Below are positions 1,172-48,233 of a stretch of 56,579 nt of DNA, piece by piece. The notes below the pieces were generated by a model. That model ran no database searches. It was not told the origin of the DNA and was given only the letters and a program-made list of their open reading frames with translations. A program made the translations under genes and the position numbers. How positions within the stretch are numbered: the first letter of the stretch is position 1; each line of letters opens with the position of its first letter. Source of the DNA: an uncultured Bdellovibrionales bacterium (GTDB lineage Bacteria; Patescibacteriota; Minisyncoccia; Moranbacterales; UBA1568). The stretch lies in NCBI GenBank assembly GCA_964488025.1, contig CAZATJ010000001.1, forward strand, positions 73,104 to 129,682. The letters run 5' to 3'.

Positions 1172-2875
1172 TCAACTGATAGCGGTAAGTTTCCGAACAA
1201 CTTCCTCGACAGAGAACGGGTCACCATCATACTTCAAAATATTTTCCGAAATTTCCACATCATATTCCAACTTGAGAAGATTAGCAAACTGTCCGGTAGC
1301 GTTATTTTCCATCACAATAATCTTTTTCTTCGCAAAAAATTTCTTGGCCTTGACTGGAAGCGGATACACCTGATGGAAATGGAGCGCCGCTATATTTTCT
1401 CGCTTGGTAAGTGGCAGCGCTTCCTCAATTACGCCGCGATTTGACCCCCAAATCACCACGAGCACATCGGCTCCGGCGACATCACCGATCTCGGTCGGCA
1501 TGAGCGCCTCCTGGCGGATACCCGAGAACTTGGACAGGCGCTTCTCGTGCATAGCCAAACGCACCGTCGCACTTTCAGTAATATGGGCCGCCTCATCATG
1601 CTCATCGCTATCGACGCCGACCAAACCCTCGCCATAGCCCGGTACTCCGCGAGGCGATATGCCATTTTTCATCAAAGCATAGCGCTGATATTCAGGCTTG
1701 GTAATCACGATATGATTCTTCATTTTAACACGTTGCAGATTCTCCTCCGGAAAACTAGAGAGGGAATCCAAAAGATACTGATCTGTCAGAATAAACACCG
1801 GTATCTGATAGGTGTCGGCGATATGAAAGGCCTGCTGTGCTACCAAAAAACATTCTTCCGGAGTCCCCGGAGCGAAAATAGCGCGCGGAAACTCGCCGTG
1901 GCCAGCGTACAACACCAGGTTAAGATCAGCCTGTTCAGTGCGGGTCGGCAGTCCGGTAGCCGGTCCCGGACGCTGTCCGATGTGTACCACAATCGGCGTC
2001 TCAATCATACCGGAGAGACTCACCCCTTCGGTCATAAGGTCAAACCCTCCACCCGAAGTAGTCACGATTGCCCGCGCCCCAGCGTACCAGGCCCCCAGCC
2101 CCTGATTGATGGCAGCAATCTCATCTTCCGCCTGATCCACCGCTATCCCAAACCGTTCGCCCTGTTCCGCCAAAAAAGTCAACAATCCGGTTCCGGGCGA
2201 CATCGGGTAGGAAGAAACATAGTTACAACCGGCAGAGAGCGTTCCAAGTCCAAGCGCCGTAACACCATCCATAAGTAGCTCCTGTTTCACTTTTTCCTCA
2301 CGCTTCAATTCCACCTCGATACCGGCATCATACGCTACGTGTCTTCCGAAACCATATCCCTTTTCGGCCGCCTCGATATTTTTGGCTACCACTTCCTCCC
2401 CCTTGCGGGAAAAATGCTCCCGTAAATAGTCTTCGAAAATTTTCTTATCGGCGTTGAGAATGCCCAGTGCTACCCCGACCGCCACCGTGCTGGTATAGAG
2501 AGGATTGCCCAATTCATTGGCAAACTGCGTGAATGGGATATTGATGACCGGACACGTCGTCATGGTACACACTTTTTCCCGCTCGCCAAGTATGATAGTA
2601 TCCTTGCTGATACGGTGTTCTAGATGCGGCAGAACATCCTTATCCATGGCAAATAAGAGATCAATACGCTCCACAAAAGCCCTCCGTGGCGTGTTGGTCA
2701 CGCGGATTTCGGTCGAGTTGCTGCCACCACGGATGCGCGACATGTACTCCTTGATAGCGAAGACGTGGTAGCCTTCGCGCTTGAGTACCGAGACAAGAAG
2801 TGCCTCAACGGTCTGCACCCCCTGTCCGGCCGCCCCACCCAAAACGATTGAAACATCTCCGGAAAATCTTTTCAT
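1172..2875 (-). CDS. korA: 2-oxoacid:ferredoxin oxidoreductase alpha subunit (gamma-alpha fusion)
   Basis: GGAAGQGVQT, EYMSRIRGG, YPMSP, EDEIAA, TSGGG, RPGPATGLPT motifs; substrate specificity cannot be determined from sequence. Confidence 0.93.
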   Translation of the reverse strand: MKRFSGDVSIVLGGAAGQGVQTVEALLVSVLKREGYHVFAIKEYMSRIRGGSNSTEIRVTNTPRRAFVERIDLLFAMDKDVLPHLEHRISKDTIILGEREKVCTMTTCPVINIPFTQFANELGNPLYTSTVAVGVALGILNADKKIFEDYLREHFSRKGEEVVAKNIEAAEKGYGFGRHVAYDAGIEVELKREEKVKQELLMDGVTALGLGTLSAGCNYVSSYPMSPGTGLLTFLAEQGERFGIAVDQAEDEIAAINQGLGAWYAGARAIVTTSGGGFDLMTEGVSLSGMIETPIVVHIGQRPGPATGLPTRTEQADLNLVLYAGHGEFPRAIFAPGTPEECFLVAQQAFHIADTYQIPVFILTDQYLLDSLSSFPEENLQRVKMKNHIVITKPEYQRYALMKNGISPRGVPGYGEGLVGVDSDEHDEAAHITESATVRLAMHEKRLSKFSGIRQEALMPTEIGDVAGADVLVVIWGSNRGVIEEALPLTKRENIAALHFHQVYPLPVKAKKFFAKKKIIVMENNATGQFANLLKLEYDVEISENILKYDGDPFSVEEVVRKLTAIS

Positions 2876-2918
2876 GTCCGTTTTTCTTTTGACTCCATTA
2901 TAACACGTCCCCTCCCTC

Positions 2919-3671
2919 CTAAGAAAAGAATCCGGCCAGCTGGGTCACGATAACCAAAGCGGCCAGCGCTACCATGACACCGATGATGGAATATTGCACG
3001 ATTTTCTTACCAGTATTGATGCGTTCCTCGTCCCCGGCCGAAGTGAGATACATAAGTCCGCCGACAACCAGCATGATAATGCCGACCACCCCGACCACAG
3101 AAAGAAGGAAATTGAGCACACTGGTCGCGATTTCGGCCAGTGTCTTCGAGGTAGCAACCGCTCCAGCGGCAATCGGTCCCCAACCAAGAACCTCCCCAAT
3201 CTGCTTCAAGAAAGAAGGAGCGGCAATACCAAGCGCCAGACCAATCAAAGCTGCCGTAATGACGCTCTTGGCCGTTGTGAGTCGACCTTCATCTCCGGCC
3301 GCGGTCATATAGAGAATCCCACCGATGACGATGAAAATGAGAGAAAGAATGGCGATGATAGCCTGAAGCGATCCGAGCAGCGAATCAAGCACTCCTTCGA
3401 CCGTGGTGAATGCGACAGGATTATTGACTTGCACGGCAACTATCTGCGGTGCCGTTGGTGCCGTCTGTCTACAACAAGTGGTAAGACTGTCATTACAGAG
3501 GCCGATTGGTGTTTCATCTGGAAACCCAGAACACGTCGCTGACGGACGACAGGTCTCACCGGCACCAATACAAGCAACCGCCAGGGCTGGCGGTGCCGAA
3601 AAAAAAGCAATGGATGAAAACGAAAAAATGCTCAAAAAGAAGAACAGGGTCATTAGATATCGGTACGACAT
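2919..3671 (-). CDS. VirB2/TrbC-like pilin with two pilin domains and an N-terminal six-Cys head
   Basis: Signal peptide, Cys-rich segment, then two hydrophobic hairpins each containing Y(M/L)T(A/S)AGDE. Confidence 0.8.
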   Translation of the reverse strand: MSYRYLMTLFFFLSIFSFSSIAFFSAPPALAVACIGAGETCRPSATCSGFPDETPIGLCNDSLTTCCRQTAPTAPQIVAVQVNNPVAFTTVEGVLDSLLGSLQAIIAILSLIFIVIGGILYMTAAGDEGRLTTAKSVITAALIGLALGIAAPSFLKQIGEVLGWGPIAAGAVATSKTLAEIATSVLNFLLSVVGVVGIIMLVVGGLMYLTSAGDEERINTGKKIVQYSIIGVMVALAALVIVTQLAGFFS

Positions 3672-6122: not shown

Positions 6123-7910
6123 CTATTTTTTTCTCCCTGCTTTGGTACGATCCGTTTCGGTAAGAAGCTGCTTACGCAGACGGGTGCTGCGTGGGGTCAC
6201 CTCAAGATACTCATCGGCAAGAATAATTTCCAATCCTCGTTCGATGGTTATTTCGAGCGGTGGCGTAAGTTTGATAGCCTCATCGGTTCCGGAAGAACGC
6301 ATGTTGCTCATCGCTTTCCCCTTAATCGGATTGACTGCCATGTCGGTTCCCTTCGTGACATTCCCCACCACCATACCCTCGTACACTTCCGCCGAAGGAG
6401 CAATATAGAGCACTCCCCGTTCCTGAAGATTATTCAATGAAAAAGCGAGGGCTTTCCCGGTCGCCATCGAAACCATCGATCCCACTTCACGTGACTTTAT
6501 CTCTCCAGCGAAAGGGCGAAATCCCAAGACACGCGAATACAGCGTTCCTTCGCCACGGGTATCCACCATAAATTCACCACGATAGCCGAGCAGCCCCCGC
6601 GTTGGCACTTCAAAAATGAGCCGAGTATAGCCACCCGATCCCTCCTTCATTTCCATCATGATACCTTTGCGTTTCCCCATTTTCTCGATAACCGTGCCGG
6701 AAACTTCAAGCGGGCACTCGACAGTCACTTCCTCAAACGGTTCCGATTTCACGCCATCGACATCCTTGATGATGACCTGCGGTTGAGACACCTGGACCTC
6801 ATACCCTTCGCGCCGCATATTCTCAAGCAAAATGGCAACATGCAATTCTCCGCGCCCATAAACCTTGTAGTGATCATCAGCAAAATCGATCTTCAGCCCC
6901 ACATTTATTTCCAGTTCTTTTTCTAGACGTTCACGAAGCTGCTTGTTGGTCACGTATTTTCCCTCACGTCCGGCAAACGGAGAATCATTGACGAGAAAAT
7001 TAAGCGAAATAGTCGGCTCATCGATAGCGATAATCGGAAGGAGTTCCTGGAAATGCGTCGCACAAATCGTATCACCAATATCAATGCCTGGAAGTCCGGC
7101 AATCATAACGATATCTCCCGCTTCGGCGATAGAGGATTCGACTCGCTCCAGGCCGCGAAAAGTGAAGAGTTTCACGATTCGTCCCGTCTCGCTCTTTCCA
7201 GAGATGCTCCGCACCAGTACCTGGTCATTCACCCGAAGCGTTCCCTCATATACCCGAGCCACCGCCAAACGGCCGACGAAATTATCGTATCCAAGATTGA
7301 ATGGTTGGGCACGAAGCGGTTTCTCGGTTTCATGTGCCGCTGGCAATACCTTGGCAAGAATAGTGTCCAAAAGTGGCGAAAGATCCTTGCCTTGGTCTGC
7401 GAGTGAAAGCTTGGCGATACCCTCACGAGCGATGGCATAGACCACCTTGAAATCAAGCTGATCATCATCAGCTCCTAGATCGAGAAATAGCTCATACACC
7501 ATCTCCTCAACAATTTCCGGACGGGCCGCCGGTTTATCAATCTTGTTTAACACCACGATTGGGCGAAGGCCCAGCTCAAGAGACTTCTTCAAAACAAAGC
7601 GCGTCTGCGGCATCGGCCCCTCCTGGGCATCCACGACCAACACAACACTGTCGATAGAGCGCAACACCCGCTCCACCTCGGAACCGAAATCCGCATGCCC
7701 AGGGGTATCGACAATATTAATTTTCGTATCCTTATAGAAAAGAGCGGCGTTTTTAGCATAAATAGTAATCCCCCGCTCCTGCTCCAAGGCATTAGAATCC
7801 ATAGAAACGCTGTCAGACGTTATCATCCCAGTCTGACGCATCAAAGCATCCGTCAGGGTTGTCTTTCCATGATCCACATGAGCGATGATGGCGATATTTC
7901 TAATTTCCAT
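6123..7910 (-). CDS. typA: Translational GTPase TypA/BipA
   Basis: [34 protein letters not shown]; start placed at MEIRN (ATG 7910) rather than the ORF-track start 8027. Confidence 0.96.
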   Translation of the reverse strand: MEIRNIAIIAHVDHGKTTLTDALMRQTGMITSDSVSMDSNALEQERGITIYAKNAALFYKDTKINIVDTPGHADFGSEVERVLRSIDSVVLVVDAQEGPMPQTRFVLKKSLELGLRPIVVLNKIDKPAARPEIVEEMVYELFLDLGADDDQLDFKVVYAIAREGIAKLSLADQGKDLSPLLDTILAKVLPAAHETEKPLRAQPFNLGYDNFVGRLAVARVYEGTLRVNDQVLVRSISGKSETGRIVKLFTFRGLERVESSIAEAGDIVMIAGLPGIDIGDTICATHFQELLPIIAIDEPTISLNFLVNDSPFAGREGKYVTNKQLRERLEKELEINVGLKIDFADDHYKVYGRGELHVAILLENMRREGYEVQVSQPQVIIKDVDGVKSEPFEEVTVECPLEVSGTVIEKMGKRKGIMMEMKEGSGGYTRLIFEVPTRGLLGYRGEFMVDTRGEGTLYSRVLGFRPFAGEIKSREVGSMVSMATGKALAFSLNNLQERGVLYIAPSAEVYEGMVVGNVTKGTDMAVNPIKGKAMSNMRSSGTDEAIKLTPPLEITIERGLEIILADEYLEVTPRSTRLRKQLLTETDRTKAGRKK

Positions 7911-7971
7911 ATCCGTTCTCTTATCTGTTACGTTGAAAATATAAGTGGTGTCCACCTTGAAACAATAACAG

Positions 7972-8046
7972 GTATTCACCCCAGGGCAAGCCCTCCGCCC
8001 AAAAACGAAAACAAGTTTTCGTTTCACTCGCTTCGTTTGGTAATAA
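7972..8046 (-). repeat. Left copy of an inverted repeat pair (partner 10149-10237)
   Basis: Minus strand TTATTACCAAACGAAGCGAGTGAAACGAAA...GTGAATAC; 27/30 identical to the block at 10149-10178. Confidence 0.8.
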
Positions 8047-8049
8047 TCG

Positions 8050-8128
8050 AAAAAAGGCGTTGGAGCGCCTTTTCAAAGACTGGAAAACTGAGCCAGCTCA
8101 TCATACCAGAAAAACTCCCTTCTGGCAA
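8050..8128 (-). promoter_or_regulatory. Sigma70-like promoter followed closely by a terminator-like hairpin upstream of typA
   Basis: TTGCCA (8123-8128), 17 bp, TATGAT (8100-8105) with TGn extension; AAAAGGCG/CGCCTTTTTT hairpin at 8050-8073. Confidence 0.6.
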
Positions 8129-37321: not shown

Positions 37322-37711
37322 CTAGAAAAAGATATGCTCAAGATGTCGAATAAAGGCCTTTTTGAGATGAGAGTCGTACAGAATAGAAAGGGCATCAAAA
37401 TGATATGGTCTCGCCTGACACCGCTCCTCCCTCAGATAACACTGAGCAATCCGTTCCAGTTTACGCAATTTATCTGAAGTGATGTTGGCTTCAGGAAGTA
37501 TGCCGCTTTCTTCTGACCCGAGACGACTCTTCACTTCGATAAATACCAATTCTTGGCCTTTTTCAGCCACAATATCGATTTCCCCAAGACGCCGACCGCG
37601 AGCATTACAATAGTTCGTCCGCAGTATCCTGTAACCTTTATCTTTGAGATAGCGGCACCCCAGATCCTCACCGAGAGACCCGAGACCGGAAGCGAGATGG
37701 AATGTTCCCAT
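37322..37711 (-). CDS. yraN: YraN family PD-(D/E)xK nuclease
   Basis: G..GED....YL..KGY.IL..N, GEIDIVA, FIEVKSR, K..KL...A..YL, FD. Confidence 0.92.
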   Translation of the reverse strand: MGTFHLASGLGSLGEDLGCRYLKDKGYRILRTNYCNARGRRLGEIDIVAEKGQELVFIEVKSRLGSEESGILPEANITSDKLRKLERIAQCYLREERCQARPYHFDALSILYDSHLKKAFIRHLEHIFF

Positions 37712-37747
37712 AGCTCTAACCTACCGGAAAAATCATAAAATGACAAC

Positions 37748-38312
37748 AAAAAAACCCATCTCTGGGAATTCAAATCCTGCCCCAATCCGCTTTATCCGAC
37801 CACCCTGATTAAAATAATGTTGGTGTCCGGGCGTACGACGCCCAAATAATAAAATCTTGGCTGTACGCCCGAACGTTGCATGTGCCAACAGATATCTAGG
37901 TTACGTAGCTCCGGGTGAGAAAGCATCGGTAATCCAATTGAAATCTGTGTTTTGTGCAGATGCATTTTCGCAGTAGTCCTAACGTTTCTACTACTTCTCC
38001 CTTCACCGTTCTCTGGCACTTGGCCTTTGCGATATTTATAAAGAACTTGTTTTTCTGTTTCTTTTTGTTTTTCTCTCGAAATACTTTTTTTATTGCGTAT
38101 TTCTTGAGGAACTTTTTGTTTTTGTTTTAGTCCCCATGTTAGGATGGGGCGGCTGTGGTACATTGCCACAACTCTTGAACAGTGAAAGAATCCCCTCTAC
38201 AATGAAAAACATTGCCATAGGAGACTCTTTCACCGTTCAGATAACGGTTCACCATCCGCCAACTGGCGGTAACGATAAAGGAAGCGGGTTGTCAAAGAAA
38301 TCTCAATGTCAC
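37748..38312 (-). ncRNA. Candidate large structured ncRNA (unidentified)
   Basis: Near-consensus promoter, about ten predicted helices including a 5'/3' closing helix, U-tract hairpin at the end, no convincing ORF. Confidence 0.55.
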
Positions 38313-38318
38313 AAATCA

Positions 38319-38347
38319 ATTATAGCAGAAAAGTAGCTCTTGGTCAA
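38319..38347 (-). promoter_or_regulatory. Strong sigma70-like promoter
   Basis: TTGACC (38342-38347), 17 bp, TATAAT (38319-38324) with TGn extension. Confidence 0.8.
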
Positions 38348-38484
38348 TCGGTACTCATGAAAAAACCCTTAGATAAAACTTTTTTCCCCTTAAAAAATAT
38401 CTTTACTCGAAAAACAGCGGGAAGCTGAATAAAATTAAGTCGATGACTTATTTTTTCATATTAAAAAATCCTTTTCCCAAGCCG

Positions 38485-39540
38485 TTACTTCCGCTTTTTA
38501 TCAAGAATCGCCCGCAAAGTATCCTTGCTCGTACCAATGAACCATTCATTATCCCGAAGCGTGAAGTCAAATGAAGTACCCTGTGCCTCATCAATATTGA
38601 CGAAACGAACTGTGTCGGTGTTATAGACTCCGGAACGAAAGACCACTTCACGTGCCACGGTGCTACCAGGAAATAAGAGCGGGCGGAAAAGCAAAGGGAA
38701 GGTTTTTTCCTTTTGAATCAACAACTTTTCCCCAATCGAAGCATCAACCAGCGTCAGCCTAAGACCCAACCTTGCTTTCCCGCCATCATCATACAAAAAA
38801 AGAGAGAACGGCTCCCCAAGGACAGCCACCACCTCTTCCGAAAGCCCAAGATCCATCAAAAAGGCGAATCGGCTAAAAGCAATCGGGTTGTTATTTTTAT
38901 CCGTCAGAAAAAATTCAACCGGTTGTGCCATGCGAGCAGCCGCTATTTTAGCGCCCGTCTGATCCAAAAGAATCCTGAAAGATTGAGCCGTGACCGTTTC
39001 GGTGTCGATAGAAAGATAATTTGGAGCGTCAGCAACAAATGGTGGCTGAGGCAAAGGAGTTTCCATCGCTGGCTCCGGAACTGATATGCTTTCACTGACA
39101 GGTTCCGAAGAAACAACTTTTTCTCCTCTCCATCGCAACAAATACCACGTTCCGAAACCTCCGATACCCAGAAGAAGGATCAGCCCGATAAAAACCATCA
39201 AGATCTTCTTCTTTGAACCAGTGAAGGATGAAAAAAAACCTTTCAATAGAGCCTTTTTGGTGGATGTCGGGGAAGAGGCCTCTGGTTGGGTTATTTTTCC
39301 TGAAGGAATGCCCGTTTCCGAAAAAGACTGCTCTGGCTCCCGGATACCCTCTTCCGATGTCATACCATTAAGAAAAGGGCTTGTTCTTTGTGGCGGACTG
39401 TTTTTTTTACTCGGGACATGAGGAAAAAGACTCGCCTTCTCCGTACCTTTCTGATTCATCACGCTCACGGCACTAAGAATATTCCGCGACACCATCTGTC
39501 GCGAGGTTTCTTTTTCTGAAGAATGCGAAAAAAGATTCAT
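38485..39540 (-). CDS. Single-pass membrane hypothetical protein
   Basis: Low-complexity Ser/Pro N-terminus, one TM helix, folded C-terminal domain. Confidence 0.78.
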   Translation of the reverse strand: MNLFSHSSEKETSRQMVSRNILSAVSVMNQKGTEKASLFPHVPSKKNSPPQRTSPFLNGMTSEEGIREPEQSFSETGIPSGKITQPEASSPTSTKKALLKGFFSSFTGSKKKILMVFIGLILLLGIGGFGTWYLLRWRGEKVVSSEPVSESISVPEPAMETPLPQPPFVADAPNYLSIDTETVTAQSFRILLDQTGAKIAAARMAQPVEFFLTDKNNNPIAFSRFAFLMDLGLSEEVVAVLGEPFSLFLYDDGGKARLGLRLTLVDASIGEKLLIQKEKTFPLLFRPLLFPGSTVAREVVFRSGVYNTDTVRFVNIDEAQGTSFDFTLRDNEWFIGTSKDTLRAILDKKRK

Positions 39541-47380: not shown

Positions 47381-48040
47381 TTACACCCCTCTTTCAAGAA
47401 GCACTATTTCCAACTGTTTTCCTTCCATTTCCTTTTTCTTGATATTGAGCCTGGGAAGGGTTTCTTTCGGGCAGTTTCCAATAGCATCACAAAAGGCCTT
47501 CTCCGTTTCAAGTGGAAGTGTTAGGCCAGCAATTTTGTAGTGCATCGGGATAACCAGTTTCGGCTCGATCTTTCGCACCAATTCAGAAGCCAGCTTGGCA
47601 TCAAGCGCTCCGGCACCGCCGACAGGAAGAAAAAGGATATCCACACCATTCAACTTATCGAGGGTTTCTGGGGAAAGATCATGACCCAAGGCCCCCAAAA
47701 ACGCCACATGAATATCCTCACTCTCGAAAATATAGATGGTATTTTGCCCACGCAGGGCGCCTTCCTTATCATCTTGGAACGTCGGAAATCCGAGGGCCGC
47801 TATTCCTTTCGCCGAATATTCCCCCGGAGCATCGATGACTGTCGGCTCACCCTTCAGGCTCTCTTTCACTCCTTCGGTATTGCCATGAGAAAGAAAAACA
47901 ATATCAGCCTGACCCTGAGGAGCGCGCAGTCCCGATCCTTTTTCCAAAAGATCGGTCCAGATTACGACATCTTCCGTAGCTCGTCCGGCTGGCTTGGTAC
48001 TAATTTTGAAACAATAATCCCCGTAATACTGAATATTCAT
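47381..48040 (-). CDS. Metallo-beta-lactamase-fold protein (Lactamase_B_3-like), metal ligands degenerate
   Basis: IQYYGDYCFKI, PGEYS.KG, NTIYIF, DILFLPVGG, P.LVIPMHY. Confidence 0.82.
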   Translation of the reverse strand: MNIQYYGDYCFKISTKPAGRATEDVVIWTDLLEKGSGLRAPQGQADIVFLSHGNTEGVKESLKGEPTVIDAPGEYSAKGIAALGFPTFQDDKEGALRGQNTIYIFESEDIHVAFLGALGHDLSPETLDKLNGVDILFLPVGGAGALDAKLASELVRKIEPKLVIPMHYKIAGLTLPLETEKAFCDAIGNCPKETLPRLNIKKKEMEGKQLEIVLLERGV

Positions 48041-48233
48041 AGAATGCCTTATACTTTACAGTATGTTCATAGTAGCAGAAATTTCCTCCCTCGACAAGCC
48101 TTATTTTCACCTTTTCAAGCCATGCTTGAAGCGAGACAGCCGATCCACCCTGATTATTACCACCCGTAAAATCTGGTGGATGGCCGTTATTTTTACCAGG
48201 TTACCAAAAATTCCATCATTCCATCATGAGGGG

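Follow-up and report, generated by a model that had tools for sequence, protein, structure and literature searches.

A candidate new class of large structured RNA encoded upstream of yraN in Candidatus Moranbacteria-type bacteria

Large, highly structured RNAs are rare in bacteria, and those that are understood are ribozymes, the cores of ribonucleoprotein (RNP) particles or self-assembling cages. OLE RNA (RF01071) of the Bacillota is a stand-alone RNA of roughly 600 nt, rich in covarying helices, restricted to one bacterial group and encoded beside the gene of a lineage-restricted membrane protein, OapA. ROOL (RF03087) and GOLLD (RF01998) are large ornate RNAs in which covarying kissing loops join distant parts of the molecule and linkers tolerate variation. 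In Escherichia coli the 6S RNA gene ssrS is followed by ygfA, which is co-transcribed behind it. Here an element of about 565 nt is described from the minus strand (38312→37748) of a 56.6-kb stretch of contig CAZATJ010000001.1 (56,579 nt, referred to below as the window), which, as its YraN shows, comes from a Candidatus Moranbacteria-type bacterium belonging to the candidate phyla radiation (CPR). Moranbacteria genomes are about 1 Mb in size and hold very little non-coding DNA. An earlier note, made from the letters of the window, had proposed at this place an undescribed ornate non-coding RNA or else an elaborate leader of the genes from yraN to comM. The first proposal is supported by the lack of an Rfam match, by covariation over 97 base pairs, by a conserved promoter and terminator and by the lack of a conserved open reading frame (ORF). 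The element is very probably a stand-alone structured RNA gene whose family lies outside Rfam 15, and is regarded as a candidate for a new class of large bacterial RNA.

The covariance models of Rfam 15 were used to search for known families. At the gathering threshold the full window held four tRNAs only, and ten homologous loci gave zero matches. At E<=10 the region 37600-38500 (901 nt) returned chance matches only, such as mir-368 and other microRNA hairpins and the A-tracts of CrcZ, and the 3' core (37885-38035, 151 nt) returned nothing relevant. OLE, ROOL, GOLLD, raiA, HEARO and the other large RNAs of Rfam were without a covariance-model match. ARAGORN located four tRNAs in the window and no element resembling transfer-messenger RNA (tmRNA), for which RF00023 was also without a match. 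Identity with 6S RNA, signal recognition particle (SRP) RNA or a riboswitch was set aside, there being nothing for these in Rfam 15; a group I or II intron was likewise rejected, having no Rfam match and no interrupted host gene, the RNA lying between complete genes. The earlier note had failed to match the element to tmRNA, RNase P RNA, SRP RNA, 6S RNA, group I/II introns or common riboswitches, and the covariance-model searches agree with it. A full-text literature search found no paper on non-coding RNA of Moranbacteria.

All of the traits given above for OLE RNA are shared by the element, which differs from it in having no sequence or covariance-model similarity, in its host (CPR Moranbacteria instead of Bacillota) and in a neighbouring membrane protein, up351, that has no OapA-like family assignment. 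With ROOL and GOLLD it shares large size, ornate structure, covarying kissing loops between distant parts and linkers that tolerate variation; unlike them it has no tRNA-gene neighbours or phage-like context, occupies a single fixed chromosomal locus in a housekeeping block, and has linkers that are conserved in sequence. Like ssrS it would be a highly expressed stable-RNA gene that immediately precedes protein genes of its own strand, which are probably reached by read-through, whereas 6S RNA is about 185 nt long and has an open-promoter-like bubble, a structure without counterpart here.

The RNA gene is found in the widest stretch of non-coding DNA in the window (37712-38484, 0.77 kb), between yraN (37322-37711, minus strand) and the 351-aa ORF up351 (38485-39540, minus strand), and forms a promoter-to-terminator unit. 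The sigma-70-type promoter (38347-38319, minus strand) consists of a -35 box TTGACC at 38347-38342, a 17-nt spacer and an extended -10 box TGcTATAAT at 38327-38319, from which we infer a transcription start near 38312. It matches the consensus at 11 of 12 positions in addition to the TG, is the top match within the 2 kb scanned, and is kept as TTGAC...TGnTAnnnT in 57 of the 60 homologues described below. The intrinsic terminator (37766-37748, minus strand) is formed by CCCA (37766-63), a GAGA loop, UGGG (37758-55) and a U7 tract (37754-48). Its hairpin is weak, with -5.0 kcal/mol here and values between -3.5 and -9.5 kcal/mol among the 40 homologues for which it was computed; stems of the types CCC/GGG and GGCC/GGCC substitute for each other among homologues, and the T-run is present in 59/60. 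Both signals had been read from the window by the earlier note, and their conservation bears that reading out. The promoter motif, written as TTG..N..TTTCTGSTAnnAT, also occurs at 8100-8128 and 48069-48097 (both minus strand), upstream of the ORFs 6123-8027 and 47381-48040; three occurrences in the window compare with 0.05 expected by chance, and the TTTCTGSTAnnAT type is probably the strong-promoter consensus of the lineage.

The minus-strand 565-nt RNA was predicted to fold with a minimum free energy of -188.6 kcal/mol (z = -8.07 against dinucleotide shuffles), compared with z = -3.32 for the plus strand, in agreement with the strand preference claimed before. No ORF is conserved in the sense direction, the longest ORF of each homologue having a median length of 64 aa (range 23-167), and indel lengths among homologues, distributed modulo 3 as 832/409/150, are not multiples of three. 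A 15-codon ORF pointed out by the earlier note is not conserved either, its AUG being ACG in most homologues.

Homologues were collected by taking yraN loci from a genome contig collection and running nhmmer on the region upstream of yraN. A same-strand, non-coding region 5' of yraN was matched in all close relatives, as far as a YraN identity of 45-50%, and a synteny-independent DNA pattern of two invariant boxes led to about 60 further assemblies. In total 60 distinct homologues were obtained, 500-637 nt long and present in one copy per assembly, all of them Moranbacteria-type. A covariance model of the 3' domain only (R1; 217 positions, 49 pairs) found one divergent member, L018, at 48.8 bits; its close relatives were sought through its YraN in genome and metagenome contigs, and none was found. 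With the same model, about 200 loci from other CPR lineages and other phyla, taken from the genome and metagenome collections, showed no such element next to yraN. An exact 19-mer search of genome contigs gave chance matches only, for example within rpsD of a metagenome-assembled genome (MAG) of Berkelbacteria. Judged from these sequences, the family appears confined so far to Candidatus Moranbacteria-type CPR bacteria. Moranbacteria-type pnp, yraN and comM, with protein identity up to 93%, occur alongside this RNA in many public MAGs titled 'uncultured Bdellovibrionales/Pseudobdellovibrionaceae' (L005, L006, L013, L016-L019 and many of L085-L164), whose labels are probably wrong.

The gene order pnp - up351 - RNA - yraN - dksA-like - lspA - comM, on a single strand, is near-universal among the loci, and yraN stands downstream of the RNA in 56/59. 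In L146 (about 1196-3019, minus strand) the RNA is followed by dnaG instead of yraN, and in one MAG (L129/L009) an extra gene stands between RNA and yraN. Because synteny breaks downstream of it in these loci, the RNA is not tied to yraN. The inserted gene, split over two contigs (L129 1-349; L009 69-473), encodes a secreted or membrane protein. At L011, also a locus of Moranbacteria, dnaJ lies upstream of yraN and no RNA was found at that place.

Helices were derived from a mutual-information map with average product correction (APC) and a scan for stacked canonical pairs, and were then counted. Over the whole RNA, aligned with MAFFT, 97 pairs were defined; 89.6% of their cells are paired, against 35-43% in slid controls, and 69 of the pairs have altered on both sides. 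Over the 3' domain, in an alignment based on the covariance model, the 49 pairs are 92.7% paired and 33 changed on both sides, compared with 27-42% pairing when partners were moved by 1-3 columns. Good support was obtained for H1 (19 bp and a distal stem), H2, H3, H4, H6, Pb, Pc, Pd and Pe; that for H5, H8 and Pa is weaker because their sequence is nearly invariant. The molecule has a 5' domain (H1, H2, H3), a centre in which two sequence-conserved, A/C-rich single strands surround H4, and a 3' domain in which H5, H6 and H8/Pa, the last enclosing Pb/Pc, are followed by the Pd/Pe arm and the invariant CACCAACA. All of these features are on the minus strand.

The RNA begins with a variable leader (38312-38239) that contains a semi-conserved YUUGACAA box, a lineage-specific hairpin (CCGCC 38269-65/GGCGG 38260-56) and a short strand named X0 (ACCGUU, 38248-43); it varies in length and sequence and is mostly missing in the far clade (alignment A3). 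The long hairpin H1 (38238-38177) has an ascending strand at 38238-38220, a descending strand at 38195-38177 and a distal stem at 38215-10/38204-38199. Its main stem of 19 pairs is 92.3% paired with 14 pairs changed on both sides, and in the distal stem 5/6 pairs covary. The earlier note had drawn a helix at 38183-38232, which is real by covariation and falls short of the extent now found. In L018 a perfect 17-bp hairpin (GACGUUCCAAUCGUGAA/UUCACGAUUGGAACGUC, at 1-60) stands where H1 stands in the main family. H2 (38172-66/38158-52) has the conserved loop CAAUGUA and changes on both sides of 7/7 pairs, the top mutual-information pair, 38168-38156, being among them. In H3 (38149-45/38136-32) 4/5 pairs covary around the loop (U)CCUAAC at 38144-38138.

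Linker 1 (38131-38109; ACUAAAACAAAAACAAAAAGU) has invariant A/C columns in A3 and leads to H4 (38108-38075), a hairpin with the base CUC/GAG and an A-rich loop, in which 5/5 basal pairs changed on both sides (88.6% paired) and which carries here a longer GAAAUAC/GUAUUUC extension. It is followed by linker 2 (38074-38026; AAAAACAAAAAGAAACAGAAAAACAAGUUCUUUAUAAAUAUCGCAAA) with a conserved GUUCUUU box. A single-stranded, A-rich linker had been proposed in this part of the molecule; both linkers exist, and their sequence is conserved. A hairpin module of 60-75 nt (GGUGUUGGCUACACAG..GGAUGGAA..CUGUGUAGCUAAC and variants), absent from the window, is inserted at two linker sites in relatives: at the 3' end of linker 1 in L008 (about 2590-2660), L172, L141 and the L154 clade, and in linker 2 in L005 (about 2650-2720), L006, L147, L097, L091, L131 and L138. 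It looks like a mobile or copied cassette.

The 3' domain opens with H5 (38025-23/38017-15) and a conserved joiner, AGAGAACGGUGAAGGGAGAA, that contains the strand X2 treated below (region 38025-37995). H6 (37994-88/37976-70) covaries at 7/7 pairs and has the loop GUUAGG(A) at 37983-37977. The hairpins H2, H3, H4 and H6 correspond to helices which the earlier note had placed at 38152-38172, 38130-38150, 38073-38108 and 37973-37994, all of them now backed by covariation. A local hairpin claimed at 37943-37961 found no support, those strands forming instead the long-range helices H8 (37963-56/37885-78), which is mostly invariant with one covarying pair, and Pa (37948-43/37893-88), with two covarying pairs carried by 23 and 18 sequences; a conserved ACAAAAC bulge belongs to H8/Pa. 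Enclosed by these are Pb (37935-29/37904-37899), covarying at 5/6 pairs, and Pc (37924-21/37911-08), covarying at 4/4 pairs and closed by the near-invariant loop UCUCACCCG (37920-12). The 3' arm consists of Pd (37873-64/37835-26; 8/9 pairs changed on both sides, 98.9% paired) and the inner stem Pe (37861-57/37845-40) with an AU-rich loop, and is followed by CACCAACA (37825-18), which is invariant in 60 sequences. Of the nested arm described before at 37818-37890, the CGGGCGUAC/GUACGCCCG part is real by covariation; the outer UGUUGG/CCAACA is invariant in the main family and overlaps Pa by 3 nt, its only compensatory hint being UGUUGU/ACAACA in the divergent L018.

The purine-rich 3' tail (37817-37767) is variable and lies outside the conserved core (A3 columns 790-890); in relatives it can be as short as a few nt or as long as about 90 nt. 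In L113 it contains about seven tandem copies of the heptamer GUGAUAA (A3 columns ~801-870). The earlier note had the whole domain closed by a helix between 38268-38290 and 37784-37804. Such a helix can form in the window (-26.4 kcal/mol) and is without support across the family: when tails were compared by RNAduplex with shuffled tails and non-cognate partners, the median z was -0.2 and the cognate tail ranked in the top 3 in 2/40, and the idea was dropped. One clade is almost without a 3' tail.

The 5' and 3' domains are tied together by a kissing helix of 6-7 bp between the loops of H3 and H6, which is 99.2% paired with 4/6 pairs covarying. Its variants switch as a unit: UCCUAAC/GUUAGGA is replaced by UUCUGGU/ACCAGAA in the far clade, by AUCUGAC/GUCAGAU in L104 and by CUCUAAC/GUUAGAC in L151, so that at least three separate compensatory variants are present.

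A second long-range contact involves a repeated strand. The earlier note had seen GAACGGTGAA twice, and the RNA indeed holds exactly two copies; GAACGGUGAA occurs once as X1, in the ascending strand of H1, and once as X2, in the 3' domain, and further copies of it or its complement across the window were not found beyond chance. X1 (GAACGGUGAAAGA) is at 38238-26 and X2 (GAACGGUGAAGGG), the second copy of GAACGGUG, at 38011-37999 in the joiner after H5. The strand X1' (UCUUUCACUGUUC, 38189-77), in the descending strand of H1, is complementary to both. Over 59 sequences X1':X2 is 95.4% paired with 6/13 pairs covarying, compared with 44-67% in slid controls. In the lower 8 bp of X1' (CACUGUUC) mismatched cells number 4/472 for X2 and 27/472 for X1, while in the upper 5 bp they number 4/295 for X1 and 31 for X2; selection therefore reserves the two halves of X1' for different partners, the lower for X2 and the upper for X1. 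In clades with a changed lower half (CUGCUGCUU) X2 follows perfectly (AAGCGGUAG) and X1 retains an internal loop. In many lineages X0 can in turn pair with the first half of X1, giving a topology of 1:2 + 3:4 versus 2:3, with a compensatory AUCAUU/AAUGGU change in L125. This is the helix formerly placed at 38232-38248: the pairing is possible, yet it is a lineage-limited competitor of the base of H1.

The strand displacement of E. coli SRP RNA and the switching of attenuators resemble X1' in that one strand has two partners, an early one nearby and a late one far away. Here, in distinction, both partners are conserved and covary over the 59 sequences, each being favoured on its own half, and the alternative pairing involves neither a terminator nor a ribosome-binding site. 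The mature fold may split X1' between X1 and X2, as the endpoint of strand-displacement folding or as a switch, and tertiary contacts or a protein would then pay the nearest-neighbour cost of about 11 kcal/mol.

For the role of the RNA, our tentative best guess is a mechanism in trans, in which, as an abundant RNA, it would have an architectural or RNP role. A surface for partner binding would be formed by the invariant loops (CUCACCCG, CAAUGUA and CACCAACA) together with the (AAN)n-like A/C tracts, and yraN-dksA-lspA-comM would be expressed by read-through of the weak terminator. The gene of the protein YraN (UPF0102, nuclease fold) lies 36 nt past the terminator, and the stretch from there to the yraN ATG showed no promoter. 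With weak terminator hairpins and no promoter before yraN, read-through therefore probably feeds yraN and likewise dksA-lspA-comM.

By analogy with OLE RNA and OapA, one candidate partner would be up351, a co-distributed neighbour whose gene immediately precedes that of the RNA wherever a locus reaches that far. It is a single-pass membrane protein of an orphan family of 85 proteins, named from Moranbacteria only. No Pfam family was found for it, apart from one weak FliL-like match at the transmembrane helix. Its AlphaFold 2 model has a disordered N-terminus, a transmembrane helix at residues ~95-122 and a confident C-terminal α/β domain, and a Foldseek search against the PDB gave nothing below E = 0.1. 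On these results the notion of up351 as an identifiable RNA-binding partner was dropped.

Relatives of the RNA are represented in RNA libraries. Metatranscriptome contigs 80-99% identical to the body of the RNA were found in at least nine runs, from freshwater, sediment, sludge, ice, soil and wastewater; these are assembled short contigs of relatives and not raw reads. Four of them end at 38166-38169, and a processing site there was considered and dropped, as contigs in X27/X28 cross H1, the promoter and the flanks.

Several points weigh against the account given so far. The contigs in X27/X28 run through the promoter into flanking genes, so that DNA carry-over and read-through are inseparable in them. 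The shuffle controls for covariation keep phylogenetic signal, and reliance was placed on the slid controls and on counts of independent variants. In the nearest-neighbour model plain H1 is the more stable, with a median margin of 13.1 kcal/mol against the full X2 helix and of 11.5 kcal/mol against the split form; the cost must therefore be paid by tertiary contacts, a protein or pairing in trans, or else the X2 pairing is a transient or switched state. As to up351, the entire gene block is syntenic and its adjacency may mean nothing, its predicted fold is without a PDB match, and its C-terminal domain may be extracellular.

Foremost among the rival explanations is a self-assembling, RNA-only complex in which the H3/H6 kissing helix, and perhaps X2:X1', would be intermolecular and the RNA would assemble into dimers or larger homo-oligomers, like OLE, ROOL and GOLLD, its A-rich linkers being flexible or in the interior. 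The covarying kissing loops of ROOL and GOLLD, first taken as tertiary contacts, are intermolecular bridges in cryo-electron microscopy (Kretsch et al., PMC12286853), which provides the precedent. Both long-range contacts of the present RNA are non-nested and join otherwise separate domains, pairing of X2 in cis is costly in energy, and the two linker sites tolerate insertions as exposed or disordered segments would. Covariation, however, is blind to whether a pair forms in cis or in trans, and the linkers keep their sequence, in contrast to those of ROOL and GOLLD, which are described as disordered (PMC12286853). We consider such a complex unlikely. A bolder form of the idea is held to be just as doubtful: the family would count as the first ornate class of large RNA restricted to CPR and form an RNA-only or RNA-scaffolded assembly, its kissing and X2:X1' helices being intermolecular or a domain swap, the duplicated GAACGGUG converting a self-closed H1 monomer to an assembly-competent form, and the A/C tracts recruiting a partner, perhaps at the membrane via up351.

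The earlier note's alternative, a cis-acting leader or attenuator of yraN-dksA-lspA-comM in which X0/X1/X1'/X2 (1:2 + 3:4 versus 2:3) would act as a sensor that sets passage through the terminator, is an improbable principal role. The RNA shares its strand with yraN, which follows it in nearly all loci and whose ATG lies 36 nt from the U-tract with no promoter found between; the terminator hairpins are weak, and mutually exclusive pairings are the classic topology of an attenuator. Set against this, 230-480 nt lie between the switching strands and the terminator downstream of them, which is parted from them by a tail of variable length and sequence, and the alternative pairings (38248-37999) never involve the terminator (37766-37748), so that no expression platform is present. 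The replacement of yraN by dnaG in L146 and the intervening gene in L129/L009 speak in the same direction, as does yraN without the element in other CPR lineages and in L011, and about 450 nt of conserved tertiary architecture far exceeds what known leaders need.

A new ribozyme, in which a large invariant multi-helix core would serve catalysis (processing, ligation or self-cleavage), is judged about as improbable. Size, tertiary contacts and many invariant unpaired nucleotides typify ribozymes among large bacterial RNAs. No known ribozyme motif was found in the Rfam searches of the region, however, and there is no sign of a processing site, the ends of the metatranscriptome contigs being inconsistent between runs.

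The motifs GGUGAAGGG and CUCACCCGGAGC resemble CR-II and CR-III, two motifs in the specificity domain of RNase P, a resemblance rejected as identity on the covariance-model results and on structural context. Last among the rivals, and very improbable, is a highly divergent housekeeping RNA, above all RNase P RNA, which shares with the element these short motifs and a similar size as a presumably stable promoter-to-terminator RNA, and whose CPR forms have diverged past default Rfam thresholds: those of RF00010 were lowered for 10/35 CPR genomes and the diverged RNAs were still found (Lui et al. 2021, PMC8172020), whereas the element matched neither RF00010 nor RF00011 at any threshold tried (gathering or E<=10 for the whole region and the 3' core, gathering for the ten homologous loci), has its CACCCGG motif in a hairpin loop and not in a joining region beside P11, pairs its GGUGAAGGG motif with X1', shows no P4-type long-range helix in its covariation map and no CR-I (GGAAAGUCC-like) or CR-V (ACAGAA..GGCUUA-like) in 38312-37748, and, with regard to other housekeeping RNAs, gave no tmRNA-like element in ARAGORN.

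Every sampled member of the clade keeps an RNA of about 0.5-0.6 kb with dozens of invariant unpaired nucleotides, and in the window its promoter is among the best. The three-strand arrangement of X1, X1' and X2 is an unusually clean natural case for the study of RNA strand displacement, and the sequence set, the covariance model of the 3' domain and the pair-by-pair structure are available for in vitro work. A new class of RNA in the CPR would raise a question, open to testing, about how organisms live for which growth in isolation is not yet possible.

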